Of a DNA stretch of 64,000 nucleotides, positions 5,931 through 50,392 are shown piece after piece. The position numbers and the translations under genes were made by a program. The number at the start of each line of letters is the position of its first letter. Position 1 is the first letter of the stretch. The DNA comes from a virus, in the IMG/VR virus record IMGVR_UViG_3300024348_000004; one strand, given 5' to 3'. The notes beneath the pieces were generated by a model. That model did not search any database, had not been told where the DNA came from, and was given only the letters and a program-made list of their open reading frames with translations.

Positions 5931-7642
5931 TAAACTTCAAAACTGTGAGGTGGAAGAACCTTCTTTCATCAGGCAACAAATATACTGAGATACAATTAGA
6001 CAGAAATCAGACAACCCTAGTATTGGGTGAGAACGGTGCTGGTAAATCCACACTATTAGATGCATTGTGTTTCGGATTGTACGGACGTGGATTTCGAAAT
6101 CTAAAAAAAGACTTATTGATAAACTCAATCAATCAAAAAGAAATGATAGTGGAGGTTGAATTTTCAATTGGTCGAAGAGAATACAAAGTAATACGTGGTG
6201 CAAAACCTAATAAATTTGAATTATATGTAAATGATATGTTGGTAGACCAAGACGCTACGGTTAAAGACTATCAAGAACATTTAGAAAAGAACGTACTCAA
6301 AATGAGTTACCGTTCATTCACACAGGTTGCTATCTTGGGGTCAGCAAACTTCACCCCATTCATGCAATTGAAATCGGCAGAGAGACGTAAATTAGTTGAA
6401 GACTTGTTAGACATTTCAATCTTTAGTACCATGAAAGACATTCTAAGAAAGAAAGTATCCGCACATAAGATAGAGTTGAAAGAAACTAACCATGAAGTTG
6501 AACTCATAGAAGAACGTGTGAGTGGTCTCAACGAACAGTTGCAAGCACTGAGAGAAACAAGAGAACTTAAGATTAAAAAGTACGAAGGTACTGTACAAGA
6601 AACGCAAGATAATATTGATACACTACTAGAAAAGGTAGGTGTTAAAGAAGAAGATGTGGTAAATAAGCTTGAGACCATATCAGACAGAGACCCACAGGGG
6701 GATAGACTTAAACAAGCAGAAGCAGTAGAACAACAACTTATAACTGCACGTAAGAAAGCACTGAAAGAAATAGAGTTTTATGAAAACCACGATGATTGTC
6801 CAACATGTAAACAGGGGTTAGACCATGAACACAAGACGAAACACATTGAAGAGAAGAAACTTAAGTCAGATGAAATCAAGGAAGCGCTGCTTCAACTTGA
6901 CACCACCCTCGAAAATACCCGAAATCGATTGGCGGAAATCACCGAAGTCCAACGAGAAATAGAATCCATTCAAAAACAGAAAGGTCTTTTACAAACTGAG
7001 ATACTTTCAAATCAGAAGTTCATTACAAAGATTCAAAAGGAAATTGAAGAACTCAAAATAGAACAAAATGTAAGTTCAAATGTCCATGAACGAATCGAAG
7101 AATCAGAAGATACACTAGAGATTCTACACCAAAAACATAAGACACTAGTAGACCAAGGACACTACTTTGATATTGCTTCTACTCTATTGAGAGACCAAGG
7201 AGTAAAGGAAAAGATTATTAAACAGTATGTTCCTGTTATGAATAAGATGATTAACAAGTATCTTGCCCAATTAGAATTCTATGTTGGGTTCGAACTCAAC
7301 GAAAGTTTTGAAGAGACTATCAAGTCAAGATTTAGAGACGTGTTTAAGTACGACAACTTCTCACAAGGTGAAAAGATGAGAATCGACTTATCACTTTTGT
7401 TTACTTGGAGAGCAGTTGCACGTATGAAGAACAGTGTGAACACTAACTTGCTTATACTTGACGAAGTGTTTGATTCATCACTAGACGTTAATGGAACAGA
7501 TGACTTCATGAAACTATTAAACACCTTGACGGAAAAGACTAATGCATTTATAATTAGTCACAAGGGAGATGCACTGTACGACAGGTTCGAGAATGTAATT
7601 CGATTCGAGAAACATAAAAACTTCTCACGACTGGCGGAATAG
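5927..7642 (+). CDS. 46: gp46 recombination ATPase (Rad50/SbcC-like)
   Basis: GENGAGKS, CPTC zinc hook, FSQGE signature, LILDEVFD. Confidence 0.96.
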   Translation: MINFKTVRWKNLLSSGNKYTEIQLDRNQTTLVLGENGAGKSTLLDALCFGLYGRGFRNLKKDLLINSINQKEMIVEVEFSIGRREYKVIRGAKPNKFELYVNDMLVDQDATVKDYQEHLEKNVLKMSYRSFTQVAILGSANFTPFMQLKSAERRKLVEDLLDISIFSTMKDILRKKVSAHKIELKETNHEVELIEERVSGLNEQLQALRETRELKIKKYEGTVQETQDNIDTLLEKVGVKEEDVVNKLETISDRDPQGDRLKQAEAVEQQLITARKKALKEIEFYENHDDCPTCKQGLDHEHKTKHIEEKKLKSDEIKEALLQLDTTLENTRNRLAEITEVQREIESIQKQKGLLQTEILSNQKFITKIQKEIEELKIEQNVSSNVHERIEESEDTLEILHQKHKTLVDQGHYFDIASTLLRDQGVKEKIIKQYVPVMNKMINKYLAQLEFYVGFELNESFEETIKSRFRDVFKYDNFSQGEKMRIDLSLLFTWRAVARMKNSVNTNLLILDEVFDSSLDVNGTDDFMKLLNTLTEKTNAFIISHKGDALYDRFENVIRFEKHKNFSRLAE

Positions 7643-10267: not shown

Positions 10268-10344
10268 GTCCTCGTAGCTCAACTGGATAGAGCAACAGCC
10301 TTCTAAGCTGTAGGTTATAGGTTCGACTCCTATCGGGGACGCCA
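10268..10344 (+). tRNA. tRNA-Arg(UCU)
   Basis: Cloverleaf GTCCTCG...anticodon loop CTTCTAA...GGTTCGACTCC...CGGGGAC G CCA. Confidence 0.95.
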
Positions 10345-28580: not shown

Positions 28581-29693
28581 ATGGAACTGAGTAGGGAAGA
28601 TACCATATGGGTAGCGAGCAAGCTCGTTAACTATTTTGCAGACTTCAAAAGAATTGACGATTACTTTCGTGCAAGGAAAATTGAAAGAGTAAAGGACTTA
28701 CCTGCTCCGTTGTTCGGATTCGGTCTTGAGGATGACATGTTTCAAAACTATGACATGCATCCTCAAGACATGAATTTTGAGGTTACAACAATACCAAATG
28801 AAACATTTGATGCGATGTTGGAAAAAACTGCATCATTTTCGCCTGATGAATCGCCAGGCAAAACTATGAAACTCGTAGTTAAGGAGACCAATACAAACAC
28901 TGTAGTGGGATTCATAAGATATGGTTCACCACTAATCAATTCAAAACCAAGAAACGATTACCTTGGTTCTACACCCGACTTAGATATATTCAACAAACGT
29001 GCAATCATGGGATTCAACATTGTCCCTGTACAACCATTTGGATATAATTATCTTGGTGGTAAACTTCTTGCCGCTATCTGTTGTTCACACGAAACACGTA
29101 GAATGTTGAACGCTAAATATAACACAGAGTTCTGTTTATTTGAAACAACATCTTTATATGGTAACATCAAAGGTGCAAGTATGTACGATGGTATGAGACC
29201 ATTCTTAAGATACAAGGGTGATACACAGAGTAAGTTTTTACTTACACTAGGCGAAGAACTATACTTTGAACTAAGAGATTGGTTCACCGATAGAAACGAT
29301 GGAGAAGACTTGATACACAAAGGTGCTTCATCTCGTAAACTAAAAATGCAGACTAAGATGGTTAGTCTAGTAAAACAGAATTTAAAGAAACATGACTCCA
29401 TAGGATATGACCACTTCTGTAAAGCAATTGAAAATGCAAGTGGTGTAACTACACAGAAAAGATTCTACATGTCAGAATGGGGATACAGTAATACAAAAGA
29501 TGTATTGCTTGGTAAGACTGATAAACTAATCAAAGCAGAAAACTTTGATAGATTTGAGATGGATGGTATCCTCGCATGGTGGACAAAACATGCTAGTAAA
29601 AGATTTGATAATGTTATCAAACAAGGAAGAAATCGTACAGAGTTAGAAGTGTGGAATCAAAACACTATGAACAAAATAGATATTATAAGATGA
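28581..29693 (+). CDS. DUF4338/DruA-like protein, Mom-like GNAT fold; putative DNA modification enzyme
   Basis: VVKETNTNTVVGFIRYGSP, IVPVQPFGYNYLGGKLLA, FETTSLYG, SMYDG...YKGDT. Confidence 0.65.
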   Translation: MELSREDTIWVASKLVNYFADFKRIDDYFRARKIERVKDLPAPLFGFGLEDDMFQNYDMHPQDMNFEVTTIPNETFDAMLEKTASFSPDESPGKTMKLVVKETNTNTVVGFIRYGSPLINSKPRNDYLGSTPDLDIFNKRAIMGFNIVPVQPFGYNYLGGKLLAAICCSHETRRMLNAKYNTEFCLFETTSLYGNIKGASMYDGMRPFLRYKGDTQSKFLLTLGEELYFELRDWFTDRNDGEDLIHKGASSRKLKMQTKMVSLVKQNLKKHDSIGYDHFCKAIENASGVTTQKRFYMSEWGYSNTKDVLLGKTDKLIKAENFDRFEMDGILAWWTKHASKRFDNVIKQGRNRTELEVWNQNTMNKIDIIR

Positions 29694-30082
29694 AAATAGG
29701 ATTCACATGTGGTGCATTTGACCTTCTTCATGCTGGTCATATTGTAATGTTAAAAGAAGCATCTGAGAACTGTGACTACCTAATTGTGGGATTACAAACA
29801 GACCCTTCAATCGACAGACAAGAAAAGAATCAACCATGCCAATCAGTATATGAAAGGTACATACAACTAAGAGCAGTCAAATACGTAGATGAAATTCTAC
29901 CATATGACACTGAACAGAGTCTGTTAGACTTGATACAGTCTACAGAGATTCATATGAGGTTCGTAGGAGAAGACTACATAGGTGGAGATTTCACTGGAAA
30001 AGGAATGCATGAAATATATTATACAGATAGACAACATTCATTTTCCACAACCAATTTAAGGAACAAAGCGGGACTAGTATAA
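29690..30082 (+). CDS. Cytidylyltransferase (TagD/RfaE-like, HIGH family)
   Basis: GAFDLLHAGH, YLIVGLQTD, VKYVDE, GEDY, FSTTNLR. Confidence 0.92.
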   Translation: MKIGFTCGAFDLLHAGHIVMLKEASENCDYLIVGLQTDPSIDRQEKNQPCQSVYERYIQLRAVKYVDEILPYDTEQSLLDLIQSTEIHMRFVGEDYIGGDFTGKGMHEIYYTDRQHSFSTTNLRNKAGLV

Positions 30083-30142
30083 CGGTCATTACGAGGGGTT
30101 ACCAACTCTTAGATAACAGTTCGATTCTGTTGTCCCGCTCCA
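30068..30142 (+). tRNA. tRNA-Gly with atypical ACC anticodon
   Basis: GCGGGAC TA GTA-TAACGGTCAT-TAC G AGGGG-TTACCAA-CTCTT AGAT AACAG-TTCGATT-CTGTT GTCCCGC T CCA; Gly identity elements G1-C72, C2-G71, U73, C35C36. Confidence 0.88.
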
Positions 30143-30149
30143 ATATATT

Positions 30150-31478
30150 ATGCTAGATAATTTTTATACAGAAAAGACATATCAAAAGACAATTAGGATA
30201 TTAGTCTATCCTAATATCACATGGCAGAAGAACTTAGAACAAGATTCTTATGTACAAGTGTTAAAGAATATGATTCGTGAAACACAGAACGAACCGTTCT
30301 ACTGGCATATCATATCACCAACCCATATAGATGGCTTGACATTCGATAATACGGAACAGTATTTACTACCAGTTCCCACATATCCACCAGTAATGAGAGC
30401 ACACTTTGATGTAGAATCAGTGAGGAGACTAGTGGGTCATGATAAAGATTTTGATATCATCATGTCACACTTGCCAGAACATACTCACCAGTTAGTAAAT
30501 ACAATTTACAACATGACACACCACACACCAAAGGTTATTGGTTACTCGCATTGGTTTGACTTTGACCATATAGTTGCCTGGCACAAAGGTACATTCAATC
30601 AGAATGCTACAGGTCTGTTAGAGTACGATAGATGTTATATCAATACACAATGTCAGAAAGATATGGTATTGAATCAAGCAAGAGATACGTTCAATGAGAA
30701 TACTGTATCTAAACTAGACAACATTCTAAAAGTTCAACACTTGGGTGTACACTTAGATGATATTGTCAGTGTGAATAACACCCCAACAAGAACTATAGTA
30801 TTCAATCATAGATGTGAAAAGTACAAACACTTTGATGAGTTTATTGCTTTGATGGATGCATTGTGGGAACAGAGACAAGACTTTAATGTTTGGGCACCAT
30901 TGTTTGATGGTAGTTTCAGTAAACCATATCTATCAAATGAAAAGTTTGATAAGAAAGGATATTACAAAAAACTAAATGAGTGTTACATGGGATTTGCACC
31001 TAAACAAAAGTATGGTGGTTGGAGTGTTGCTGCTACAGATGGAATGATGAATGGATGTCCATACATATTCTATGAGGGTGCCTACTATCACGAATTACAA
31101 GATGACGCTGACTTCTTTACTACAGATGATGAATCACTCAAACTAATCAATGAGTATCTAGACGATATCGATTTAAGAAATGATAAAGCAACTCAAGCAC
31201 AAGATTGGTTGAGAACGCATCTACTATACAGTACAGAGATGGATAAGATGTGTGATGAAATTAAATCACTTCTATCAAAAGCAGTATGTTCACCTAAAGT
31301 AGATGAACTTGTGGAGTATGTAAAGGAACATAAATCAGTAACTAAGAAGGAATTGTTTGATACCATGGGATGGGGAAGAGGAATTAAATGGACACCTTAC
31401 AGACGTGCCTTGATGACACACCCAAACATATATGACACTACCAGTAGTGAATCCACATACAATTGGAGAGAGGAATGA
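30150..31478 (+). CDS. GT-B fold glycosyltransferase (candidate DNA glycosyltransferase)
   Basis: DFDIIMSHLPE, TIVFNHR, YGGWSVAATDGMMNGCP (GT4-like donor-binding region). Confidence 0.75.
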   Translation: MLDNFYTEKTYQKTIRILVYPNITWQKNLEQDSYVQVLKNMIRETQNEPFYWHIISPTHIDGLTFDNTEQYLLPVPTYPPVMRAHFDVESVRRLVGHDKDFDIIMSHLPEHTHQLVNTIYNMTHHTPKVIGYSHWFDFDHIVAWHKGTFNQNATGLLEYDRCYINTQCQKDMVLNQARDTFNENTVSKLDNILKVQHLGVHLDDIVSVNNTPTRTIVFNHRCEKYKHFDEFIALMDALWEQRQDFNVWAPLFDGSFSKPYLSNEKFDKKGYYKKLNECYMGFAPKQKYGGWSVAATDGMMNGCPYIFYEGAYYHELQDDADFFTTDDESLKLINEYLDDIDLRNDKATQAQDWLRTHLLYSTEMDKMCDEIKSLLSKAVCSPKVDELVEYVKEHKSVTKKELFDTMGWGRGIKWTPYRRALMTHPNIYDTTSSESTYNWREE

Positions 31479-40424: not shown

Positions 40425-41624
40425 ATGACAGCGAAAAACTTACATTTAGAACACTTAGAAGACGAAATCATCAATCAAGGTATTGATGGTGGTCGTGGTG
40501 CGATTTTCTTTCTTCAAGGTCTTAGAGACATGATGAAAGGTAACCAAAATTCTAGAGTGAACATGACTGTGAAATGGGATGGTGCTCCAGCAATCTTTGT
40601 TGGGAAACATCCCGAAGACGGCAGATTCTTTGTCGCAAAGAAATCACTATTCAATAAAGAACCTCTCTTTTATACTTCAGAACAAGAAATTAAAGACGCT
40701 AAAGAACTATCTTCTAATCTGAAGGAAAAGTTCTTGACATCATTTCAGTGCTTATCTAAACTATCCTTTACTGATATCTTACAGGGTGACTTGATGTACA
40801 CTAACGATAAGAAGATGACAAATATGGATGGTAAAACATTCATCACATTCCAACCAAACACAATCATGTATGCAGTAGATGTAGAATCAAAACTTGGTAA
40901 AGAGATTGCCAGTTCTAAGATGGGTATAGTGTTTCACACTACTTACACTGGTTCTACAATTGACGGATTATCTGCCTCCTTTGGTGCAAAACTACCAAGT
41001 GGAAGTAGTAGTGATGTGTGGATGGATGATGCAACATATAAGGATGTGAGTGGTAACAGTAGTATGACTGCAAAAGAAACACTTGCATTAACTAGGGAGT
41101 TGACTGCAGTGGGTAAAGCATTCCACGGTATCAATAAGAAAGATTTGCAGAAGTTTAAACAGATACAGGAAACTATCGCAATGAAAGGTGCAGGTGCAAC
41201 TTACAAAACATATTGTAACGCACAAATTAGGGCGGGTTCATACAAACCAACATACAACGGATACATGAAACACTTCGAAAACTACTGGAGAGATATGGTA
41301 GTTGGTAAAGTGAAGATGGAAAAGACTAAACAAATTAAAACAGAAATTGGTGAACAACTTTACGCTGAGTTACGGTCACTAAATAAATTCATAACAAACT
41401 TGACTAAATTCATGGAACACTTGGTCATTGCAAAACAAATCATAATTGTTGCACTAAATAGAGTAAAGAGTATAGGAACATTCAAAAGAACCGATAAGGG
41501 GTTCGAGGCGGTCAACCCCGAGGGTTATGTTGCAATTGATAGAACTGGAAGTGCAGTAAAACTTGTTGACAGAATGGAGTTTGCATACAATAACTTCACT
41601 GCAATGAAAGCGTGGGACAAGTAA
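40425..41624 (+). CDS. Ligase-fold nucleotidyltransferase (DUF6267-like)
   Basis: Motif I TVKWDG, III ILQGDL, IV PEGYVA, V AVKLV. Confidence 0.7.
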   Translation: MTAKNLHLEHLEDEIINQGIDGGRGAIFFLQGLRDMMKGNQNSRVNMTVKWDGAPAIFVGKHPEDGRFFVAKKSLFNKEPLFYTSEQEIKDAKELSSNLKEKFLTSFQCLSKLSFTDILQGDLMYTNDKKMTNMDGKTFITFQPNTIMYAVDVESKLGKEIASSKMGIVFHTTYTGSTIDGLSASFGAKLPSGSSSDVWMDDATYKDVSGNSSMTAKETLALTRELTAVGKAFHGINKKDLQKFKQIQETIAMKGAGATYKTYCNAQIRAGSYKPTYNGYMKHFENYWRDMVVGKVKMEKTKQIKTEIGEQLYAELRSLNKFITNLTKFMEHLVIAKQIIIVALNRVKSIGTFKRTDKGFEAVNPEGYVAIDRTGSAVKLVDRMEFAYNNFTAMKAWDK

Positions 41625-41824
41625 TGAAATCATTTAAAGAATTTTTAAAAGAAGAGTTTGCACTACCTAAGTATCCTGCTCAAACAGACATCAAGTTTAA
41701 AGATGATGACTGGGTTGTGGGTGACCCCGAAAAAGCATATGAGTATGACGGTAGTAAAACTGGTGACCAAAATATGGAAATCATGAATGACTTAGTAGAT
41801 AAAGACAGAGAGAAGATGTCGTGA
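41624..41824 (+). CDS. Small internal-head-protein-like protein
   Basis: N-terminus MKSFKEFLKEE resembles the T4 IP capsid-targeting sequence. Confidence 0.65.
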   Translation: MKSFKEFLKEEFALPKYPAQTDIKFKDDDWVVGDPEKAYEYDGSKTGDQNMEIMNDLVDKDREKMS

Positions 41825-43176
41825 AAAAATTCGGAAAATTTCTAACAGAAGCAAAAGATAAAGGTGCAGTATTCACCTTCGGTAGATTCAATCCACCAAC
41901 AACTGGTCACGAGAAACTAGTAAAGAAACTCGCAAGTCAAAAATCATTTGGTGATGTACTTTTATTCTCATCACACTCAAATGACAAAGTAAAGAATCCG
42001 CTGTCACACAAAGATAAAGTTAAGTATCTAAAAGCATTCTTCGGTAAAGACGTGAATGTAATTGACGCTGATGTCAAACAGATTTTCCAAATCCTAACAT
42101 ACCTATATGATAAGAACTACCGAAAAATTCGGATGATAGTGGGGTCAGATAGAGTTAGAGAGTTTGAGACTATTATCAATAAGTATAATAGTGTAAAGGG
42201 AAGACACGGTTTCTACAAGTTTGATGAAATACAGATTGTATCTGCTGGAGAAAGAGACCCCGATTCAGATGACGTAAGTGGAATGAGTGCAAGTAAAATG
42301 AGAGCATTTGCAGAGAAGGGAGACTTTGAATCATTTAAGGAAGGTGTCCCCACAAAAGGCAAACGACTTGCAGACAAATTGTACAAAGACATTCGTAAAG
42401 GAATGGGTATTGCAGAAGGTACACTACCACACTACATGATGGAAGACTTAATTACAGAGGGTGTATATGACCCAGGCGTATTCAAAGCAGTTTTCTTTTC
42501 AGGTGGGCCAGGCAGTGGTAAGTCAACAGTAGTTGATGCACTTTCATTAAAAGCACTTGGTTTAAAGTTAGTCAACACTGATAAAGCATTTGAGAATGGA
42601 TTACAGAAAGCAGGATTATCTCTAGACCTTAGAGGTGCAGACTTTGATAAAATAGACCCCATTCGTGCAAAGGCGAAAAGGATTACTGGAAGGAATATGG
42701 ATGCATATATAGAAGGTAGACTAGGGATGATATTTGACACTACTAGTGCAAACCTATCCAAGGTTAATTCATACAAGAAGATGTTAGACTCGATTGGATA
42801 TGAATCGAAAATGATATTTGTAAATGCAACATTAAATAATGCTCAAAAACGAAATGATATGAGACCTAGAAAGTTGCCGCAAGAAATTGTAAAACAAGAC
42901 TGGGATAAGGCGCAGAAAAATGCAAGAGACCTTAAAAAGATATTCGGTAGAGACTACGTAGAAATTTCCAACGATGATGATTTAAACGCACTACAGAGAA
43001 AGTCTAATAGTCTCTTTGGTAAACTAATGAGTTGGTCTACTTCATTCCCTAAAAATAAAATTGCACTTAATTGGAAATCTTACGAACTGCTGAAGAAGGA
43101 TACTACTGGGTATTCATCTATGAGAAGTAAAGATTCTGTGAAAAAATCACCAACAGATAAACCAAGTCCGTTTTAA
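41821..43176 (+). CDS. HIGH-family nucleotidyltransferase fused to P-loop kinase (Pnk/zeta-like)
   Basis: FGRFNPPTTGH, VGSDR, GMSASKMR; then GGPGSGKST, VNTD, IFDTT, KRNDMR. Confidence 0.85.
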   Translation: MKKFGKFLTEAKDKGAVFTFGRFNPPTTGHEKLVKKLASQKSFGDVLLFSSHSNDKVKNPLSHKDKVKYLKAFFGKDVNVIDADVKQIFQILTYLYDKNYRKIRMIVGSDRVREFETIINKYNSVKGRHGFYKFDEIQIVSAGERDPDSDDVSGMSASKMRAFAEKGDFESFKEGVPTKGKRLADKLYKDIRKGMGIAEGTLPHYMMEDLITEGVYDPGVFKAVFFSGGPGSGKSTVVDALSLKALGLKLVNTDKAFENGLQKAGLSLDLRGADFDKIDPIRAKAKRITGRNMDAYIEGRLGMIFDTTSANLSKVNSYKKMLDSIGYESKMIFVNATLNNAQKRNDMRPRKLPQEIVKQDWDKAQKNARDLKKIFGRDYVEISNDDDLNALQRKSNSLFGKLMSWSTSFPKNKIALNWKSYELLKKDTTGYSSMRSKDSVKKSPTDKPSPF

Positions 43177-50316: not shown

Positions 50317-50392
50317 GCTCCCATAGCTCAGTTGGTAGAGCAACTGATTTGTAATCAGTAGGTCAACCGTTCGAATCGGTTTGGGAGCTCCA
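50317..50392 (+). tRNA. tRNA-Thr(UGU)
   Basis: GCTCCCA...loop TTTGTAA...GTTCGAATC...TGGGAGC T CCA. Confidence 0.95.

Follow-up and report, generated by a model that had tools for sequence, protein, structure and literature searches.

A tRNA-Gly gene with the anticodon ACC in a marine T4-like phage, a candidate GGU decoder with unmodified A34

The tRNA-Gly(ACC) gene and its locus

Elongator tRNAs-Gly of the bacterial type carry the anticodons GCC, UCC or CCC. Here we describe a tRNA-Gly gene outside this set, with the anticodon ACC, in the IMG/VR virus record IMGVR_UViG_3300024348_000004. The whole stretch of 64,000 nt that was analysed is referred to as the window. The gene lies between an open reading frame (ORF) for a cytidylyltransferase-like protein and an ORF of 442 aa (Table 1). 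ARAGORN calls a tRNA-Gly(acc) at this site with the anticodon at position 34, and the Rfam tRNA model RF00005 scores it at 55.2 bits (gathering score 29, E 3.8e-9). ARAGORN finds three tRNAs in the window and the Rfam model finds the same three.

The acceptor stem GCGGGAC/GUCCCGC provides G1-C72, C2-G71 and G3-C70 and is followed by U73 and an encoded CCA. The D-loop (AACGGUCA) contains G18G19. The anticodon stem AGGGG/CUCUU (A27-U43, G28-U42, G29-C41, G30-U40, G31-C39) includes two G-U pairs and closes the loop U32-U33-A34-C35-C36-A37-A38; the variable loop has 4 nt. The T-stem AACAG/CUGUU (A49-U65, A50-U64, C51-G63, A52-U62, G53-C61) bears the T-loop UUCGAUU. Both motifs of the tertiary fold, G18G19 and U54-U55-C56, are present, and the bacterial identity set for glycyl-tRNA synthetase (GlyRS) is complete (G1-C72, C2-G71, G3-C70, U73, C35, C36). 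An intact cloverleaf with encoded CCA, Gly identity elements, the loop TTACCAA, two G-U pairs in the anticodon stem and the T-stem pairs listed here had all been described in a first-pass annotation, made from the letters alone. Sequence, ARAGORN and Rfam agree with it in all these structural details.

The same annotation had read the weak T-stem as a possible sign of a non-ribosomal glycine donor. This is not borne out. EF-Tu affinity was predicted with the additive T-stem model of Schrader and Uhlenbeck (Table 2 of PMC3239215), with 1.3 kcal/mol as the outlier criterion. The window tRNA is predicted to bind with -10.1 kcal/mol, A49-U65 being a tight pair (-0.5), A50-U64 neutral and C51-G63 mildly weak (+0.5). 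In the phage subfamily to which it belongs (see below) the predicted means are -10.1 for ACC, -10.3 for GCC and -10.0 kcal/mol for UCC, within a range of -11.0 to -9.1. Compared to bacterial Gly means the window tRNA is 0.7-0.9 kcal/mol weaker, which is under the outlier criterion. Since G18G19 and U55C56 are both kept, it does not look non-proteinogenic.

Table 1. Positions of the tRNA-Gly(ACC) gene, its neighbours and the companion tRNAs in the window
Feature	Position	Strand	Evidence or remark
tRNA-Gly(ACC), 75 nt including encoded CCA	30068-30142	+	ARAGORN; Rfam RF00005; covariation in 16 ACC homologues
Anticodon A34-C35-C36	30101-30103	+	Inside loop UUACCAA (30099-30105); A34 at 30101
DruA-like (DUF4338) ORF, probably GNAT-fold	28581-29693	+	PF14236, 27.1 bits; PADLOC DruA, 22.9 bits; phrog_19197, E 5e-150
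Cytidylyltransferase-like ORF	29651-30082	+	PF01467, 56 bits
Downstream 442-aa ORF, weak glycosyltransferase-like match	30150-31478	+	PF13524, 17 bits, below cut-off
Companion tRNA-Arg(UCU)	10268-10344	+	ARAGORN, Rfam
Companion tRNA-Thr(UGU)	50317-50392	+	ARAGORN, Rfam

All 62 long ORFs of the window are on the + strand and its G+C content is approximately 37%. The gene string around the tRNA reads Hsp20, peroxiredoxin, DruA/DUF4338-like, cytidylyltransferase-like, tRNA, 442-aa ORF, lysozyme-like and T4-type gp43. The gene content is that of replication and auxiliary genes, structural genes being absent from the window. The phage is a marine T4-like myovirus of a poorly cultured lineage, because its gp43 (T4-type DNA polymerase) is only 47-49% identical to gp43 of cyanomyoviruses and its downstream ORF has no tblastn match among 50,697 cultured phage records. 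Megablast and blastn searches of these records with the tRNA locus gave nothing useful. The Arg and Thr tRNAs of the window are uninformative as to the identity of the host, and published papers on pelagimyophages and on the Melnitz phage do not mention a Gly tRNA.

The last 15 nt of the cytidylyltransferase ORF, stop codon included, overlap the 5' end of the tRNA, as they do in relatives, and the downstream ORF starts 8 nt past the CCA. A consensus scan for a promoter or terminator of the tRNA's own performed no better than on shuffled sequences. Given the overlap, the short gap and the lack of a visible dedicated promoter or terminator, the tRNA presumably must be excised from a polycistronic transcript. 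With the last five codons and the stop of the upstream ORF inside the tRNA, a cut by RNase P at the tRNA 5' end would strip that mRNA of its stop codon. Elsewhere in the window (40425-43176), a DUF6267 protein (320 bits) precedes a fusion of a cytidylyltransferase-like domain and a P-loop kinase (AAA_33/Zeta-toxin; weak match to a polynucleotide-kinase PHROG); family searches neither confirm nor exclude a role of these genes in RNA repair.

Conservation and origin of the anticodon

The nearest IMG/VR record (57 kb) is identical to the window over 401 nt around the tRNA gene, and the same ACC sequence is found in eight IMG/VR contigs from eight samples as well as in further metagenome contigs. 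A pattern search with position 34 left free recovered the phage tRNA-Gly subfamily with the D-arm GUAUAAYGGUYAUUAC, comprising 63 loci after de-duplication. ACC is found at 9 of the 63 phage loci (six distinct sequences), next to approximately 36 distinct sequences with GCC, approximately 20 with UCC and one with CCC. A further 28 contigs and 10 sequence types came from a scan of metagenomes in which the pattern required ACC. tRNA-Gly(ACC) is hereby known as 16 distinct sequences in approximately 44 phage or metagenome contigs.

Across the 16 ACC sequences, 99.7% of 320 stem cells pair, compared to only 35-58% in slid controls. Both-sided changes are seen in 15 of 20 pairs, and all five pairs of the anticodon stem covary. 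The six-sequence subset obtained with position 34 free pairs to 100%, with compensatory changes in 14/20 pairs. G1, C2, the C71-equivalent, U73, C35 and C36 are invariant. Because the stems pair with compensatory changes, the ACC genes are, judged by their sequences, working RNAs and not decaying copies.

In bacteria, A34 is nearly confined to tRNA-Arg, and tRNA-Gly(ACC) is missing even in eukaryotes (PMC4928997; PMC11066159); it is the one A34 tRNA described as absent from all three domains (PMC4928997). A scan of one genome per prokaryotic species with the same D-arm and loop pattern gave 84 CCC, 28 GCC, 8 UCC and no ACC among the matches listed (at least 120). The first-pass view that this anticodon is essentially absent from bacteria therefore agrees with both the scan and the literature. 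That annotation had also allowed for an error from GCC or UCC. ACC is conserved in relatives, both in 15 other sequence types and identically in many independent assemblies; the latter rules out an error of sequencing or assembly. Three ACC tRNA types had no megablast or blastn match in the 50,697 cultured phage records. Further A34 tRNAs other than tRNA-Arg were encountered in phage arrays, namely Ser-ACU (L191, L200), Leu-AAG (L163, L206, L208), Ser-AGA (L190), Thr-AGU (L208) and one Cys-ACA. A34 tRNAs may be commoner in phages than in cells generally.

The downstream ORF was used as a synteny marker. At the syntenic site in 25 IMG/VR contigs with a homologue of this ORF, the tRNA-Gly is ACC in 15 and UCC in 7. 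In a maximum-likelihood tree of the downstream protein, ACC is found both in the clade of the window and in another one (L130/131 plus L127-132), which is nested among UCC lineages (L124-126, L133); the outgroups are UCC. In locus L369, the acceptor, D and T arms are as in the UCC tRNA of L134/L153, but the anticodon is ACC. These placements point to at least three switches between U34 and A34.

The window type differs from the L130/131 type solely by the compensatory exchange of C7-G66 for U7-A66; the flanking proteins are 67-87% identical. Moreover, an unrelated phage with 43% GC and small ORFs carries the window tRNA at 100% identity over 79 nt (L009:4564-4642; also L354, L357, L359, L363, L373). 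This phage has no other sequence in common with the window and no DruA-like gene, and its tRNA-Thr differs from that of the window at 21 positions. The presence of the identical tRNA alone in an unrelated phage indicates that the gene moved on its own, horizontally, and suggests that it is useful by itself. An origin of this copy as a host-derived tRNA or as a phage attachment site (attP) was rejected, as there are no adjoining integrase or host genes and ACC was not seen among the cellular family members listed (at least 120). Comparison of the loci thus presents ACC as conserved, mobile and repeatedly produced by a one-base shift from UCC.

Decoding of GGU by an unmodified A34

The Gly codons of the window are GGT (56%), GGA (30%), GGG (9%) and GGC (5%); AGA makes up 61% of Arg codons and ACA 45% of Thr codons. 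All three tRNAs of the window, Arg-UCU, Thr-UGU and Gly-ACC, are Watson-Crick matches to the top codon of their own family. In each of the six phage groups with ACC, Gly is encoded most often by GGT (42-66%), and GGC is at most 7% in five of the six. Contig G005 (162 kb) encodes 22 tRNAs, a near-complete decoding set, in which a U34 tRNA covers each of the boxes for Thr, Val, Leu, Pro and Ser, and the sole tRNA-Gly is ACC; its Gly codons are 66% GGT and 0% GGC. Of all genomic contexts, this tRNA set speaks most strongly for a role on the ribosome. As a separate observation, G005 (29% GC) also holds a tRNA of the amber-suppressor type with the anticodon CUA (L590:758-829; ARAGORN label Pyl), which hints at TAG recoding.

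In E. coli in vivo, an ACC anticodon reads GGU better than GGC and GGG, does not read GGA and is not converted to inosine (PMC11066159). tRNA-Gly(ACC) is chargeable by GlyRS, active in elongation and a strong reader of GGU in E. coli (PMC4928997), and GlyRS is indifferent to position 34 (PMC4928997; PMC11066159). From what was observed, namely the gene and its conservation, the switches of the anticodon, codon usage and genomic context, we infer expression, charging, a lack of A34 modification and a decoding pattern as follows. The tRNA would be transcribed together with its neighbours and cut from the polycistronic RNA. Host GlyRS would charge it, since the identity set is complete and does not include position 34, and EF-Tu would then deliver it to the ribosome. 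A34 is most likely unmodified and would read GGU by a Watson-Crick A-U pair, and GGC and GGG more weakly by two-out-of-three reading. The dominant Gly codon of the phage, GGU, would thereby be decoded better. One substitution, U34 to A34, in a phage tRNA-Gly(UCC) would have given rise to such a tRNA and shifted its target from GGA/GGG to GGU. The change would be tolerable in genomes which hardly use GGC and in which a G34 wobble reader is dispensable. On balance we consider it probable that the gene encodes an elongator tRNA-Gly with unmodified A34 which reads GGU, with minor reading of GGC and GGG. Three functions had been proposed at first pass: a GGU decoder, a non-ribosomal glycine donor and a variant evading an anticodon nuclease. 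The GGU decoder fits best, given the codon usage, the matches to top codons and the sole tRNA-Gly of G005; the donor, proposed from the AU-rich T-stem, fits poorly with the predicted EF-Tu affinity and the conserved G18G19 and T-loop motif.

Known tRNAs offer close comparisons. Bacterial and phage elongator tRNA-Gly(UCC/GCC) with the same D-arm share body, GlyRS elements and anticodon loop with the window tRNA, save A34 at position 34. Natural decoders with unmodified A34, Mycoplasma tRNA-Thr(AGU) and yeast mitochondrial tRNA-Arg(ACG), likewise place A34 in a four-codon box, with an expected order of U > C, G > A. As in such systems with a single A34 tRNA per box, the ACC tRNA of G005 is the sole tRNA of its box. 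An engineered E. coli tRNA-Gly(ACC) has the same A34 in the Gly box (Boren 1993, as cited in PMC11066159 and PMC4928997). Those A34 decoders are found in reduced systems, cellular or organellar, or were made by mutation in the laboratory, whereas here the A34, predicted to be unmodified, is encoded by a phage gene that comes in addition to the tRNAs of the host.

Several observations weigh against this interpretation. Close relatives bearing UCC have the same Gly usage (GGC 2-6%, GGT 51-61%); therefore codon usage alone does not explain the lineage distribution of ACC. Other low-GGC phages carry GCC and UCC tRNA-Gly, so A34 is not required. Avoidance of GGC is not a Gly-specific translational signal, because it is part of a general avoidance of NGC: in the 62 long ORFs the T:C ratios are 7.2 for TGY, 15.3 for CGY, 14.6 for AGY and 10.3 for GGY versus 1.1-4.8 in other boxes. 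The constancy of ACC inside the metagenome-scan cluster is a matter of ascertainment, ACC having been fixed in the pattern. Finally, the same genomic slot also holds non-canonical tRNA-Gly bodies, predicted to be weak EF-Tu binders, which toggle between UCC and ACC (L551, L556). This toggling fits a neutral position 34 in a non-decoding RNA. Since no GGC reader is needed at near-zero GGC, codon usage permits A34 without showing that A34 is required. Dinucleotide or restriction-site avoidance are possible causes of the NGC avoidance.

Competing explanations and biological meaning

The most serious competitor, though a doubtful one, holds that the tRNA-Gly slot is non-ribosomal and tied to the DruA-like (GNAT-like) and cytidylyltransferase genes. 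The RNA would serve as glycyl donor, decoy or RNA-processing signal, and its position 34 would drift between U and A under AT bias; only U and A are seen at this position in the slot. The tRNA lies within 0.5 kb of a DruA-like gene in three gene orders (DruA-cytidylyltransferase-tRNA, DruA-tRNA-cytidylyltransferase and gp43-DruA-tRNA), and the 11 tRNAs detected at up to 6 kb from one of 80 DruA-like genes are without exception tRNA-Gly or tRNA-Gly-like. The DruA/DUF4338 family is known from the Druantia defence system, and the GNAT fold is also used by aminoacyl-tRNA transferases. A low-confidence predicted structure of the DruA-like protein (AlphaFold2, pLDDT 61) has only GNAT acetyltransferases as top Foldseek matches, with E of approximately 0.02; a profile search against PDB sequences gave no match. 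A DruA/DUF4338-like gene is common in marine T4-like phages (at least 592 IMG/VR stretches).

Further support for a non-ribosomal slot comes from a family of unusual RNAs. The sister of the window clade (L123:2919-2993 = L458:3329-3401) carries a non-canonical tRNA-Gly(UCC) at precisely this site, with a perfect acceptor stem, U73 and CCA, with the T-loop UGCAUUA and without G18G19 or the T-loop motif; it is missed by ARAGORN. The tRNA-Gly(UCC)-like family to which it belongs comprises 37 distinct covarying sequences in 105 IMG/VR contigs (including L123, L412:7523-7598 and L376-L480) of uncultured marine T4-like phages and has no match in cultured phages. These RNAs pair to 99.1%, with compensatory changes in 13/20 pairs, and score 42-51 bits with the Rfam tRNA model; one such body (L556) carries ACC. 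Their D-loop is AAAAGUA, lacking G18G19, their T-loop UGCAAUA, UGCAUUA or GGCAGUA, and their T-stem mostly has G50-U64/U51-A63. EF-Tu binding is predicted at -8.1 kcal/mol in 16 and at -9.5 kcal/mol in 15 of the 37 sequences, as weak as, or weaker than, that of the staphylococcal cell-wall tRNA-Gly. ARAGORN misses the family altogether, so that unusual phage tRNAs are hidden by standard annotation. In L412, 52 nt separate the non-canonical gene from a manA RNA motif upstream of it (7285-7470; RF01745, 186.7 bits); the motif lies between Hsp20 and gp43.

A role outside the ribosome is clearly more plausible for this family than for the canonical tRNA of the window, whose predicted EF-Tu affinity is ordinary. 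The staphylococcal non-proteinogenic tRNAs-Gly, substrates of Fem enzymes, resemble the window tRNA in Gly identity and in the AU-rich T-stem, and a GNAT-like gene lies near the window tRNA. They differ from it in having UCC, in lacking G18G19 and U55C56 (PMC4574755) and in a predicted EF-Tu affinity of -9.5 kcal/mol, and the non-canonical phage family is far closer to them than the window tRNA is. Moreover, approximately 70 of the 80 DruA-like loci have no tRNA nearby, which rules out an obligate coupling of the two genes, and tRNA-Gly(ACC) occurs without a DruA-like gene in five other phage records, one of them a full decoding tRNA array. The structural matches of the DruA-like protein are weak and concern acetyl-CoA enzymes rather than Fem or L/F transferases, and linkage is weak evidence in T4-like genomes, which are syntenic. 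In a broader and quite speculative form, marine T4-like phages would keep a dedicated tRNA-Gly slot by a GNAT-like (DruA/DUF4338) gene, with occupants ranging from canonical to EF-Tu-evading, which would feed a non-ribosomal reaction with glycine or a tRNA-shaped ligand; U34/A34 toggling, the ACC of the window included, would then be drift. If true, this would give the staphylococcal cell-wall tRNA-Gly system its first counterpart in phages.

Conversion of A34 to inosine by host TadA or by a phage deaminase, yielding an elongator that would read GGU, GGC and GGA, is unlikely. Cellular A34 tRNAs almost always carry I34, extra A34 tRNAs are modified in some bacteria (PMC11066159), and GGA makes up nearly a third of the Gly codons of the window. 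U33-A34-C35, shared with tRNA-Arg(ACG), represents the first three bases of the UACG target of TadA. However, TadA substrates have U33-A34-C35-G36 in an Arg2-like loop, and the window loop UUACCAA deviates from it with C36 instead of G36 and U32 instead of C32. An Arg2-type loop did not suffice for E. coli TadA to edit ACC, and other A34 tRNAs were no longer edited once position 32, 37 or 38 had been changed (PMC11066159). The eukaryotic deaminase ADAT is very poor on tRNA-Gly(ACC), owing to the Gly anticodon loop (PMC4928997). A regular-expression search found no zinc motif of the cytidine deaminase (CDA) fold in the window, and none was found in four related contigs (G001-G004). The sole deaminase found, in G005, is dCMP-deaminase/ComEB-like and not TadA; no TadA-like gene was found in the available phage fragments.

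Phage tRNAs evade anticodon nucleases through changes in the anticodon loop. The decoder might be kept because A34 escapes a host defence targeting tRNAs, or a U34 modification enzyme acting on tRNA-Gly(UCC), which we regard as improbable. The switch to A34 always comes from UCC and removes the xm5U34 modification site, and the window also encodes the P-loop kinase with weak polynucleotide-kinase similarity and the DUF6267 protein. Still, we know of no Gly-specific anticodon nuclease, although none was looked for in the host, the remaining loop is unchanged compared to UCC and GCC relatives, and A34 alters the codons read, so that such a tRNA cannot simply replace UCC. An artefact or a decaying pseudogene, for which the rarity of ACC is the sole support, is already refuted by the conservation data, namely the identical sequence in many independent assemblies and the 16 types with compensatory stem changes and an invariant loop, and has practically no probability left.

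The phages thus hold a natural, conserved and repeatedly evolved tRNA-Gly(ACC), which provides a native system in which to study decoding by an authentic A34. The question why eukaryotes never evolved tRNA-Gly(ACC) has been posed (PMC4928997). The phage tRNA would allow to test whether the absence of ACC from cells reflects a functional defect or a historical or enzymatic constraint. It would also lend itself to studying how phages adapt single tRNAs, by anticodon shifts of one base, to a skewed codon usage with high GGU and near-zero GGC.

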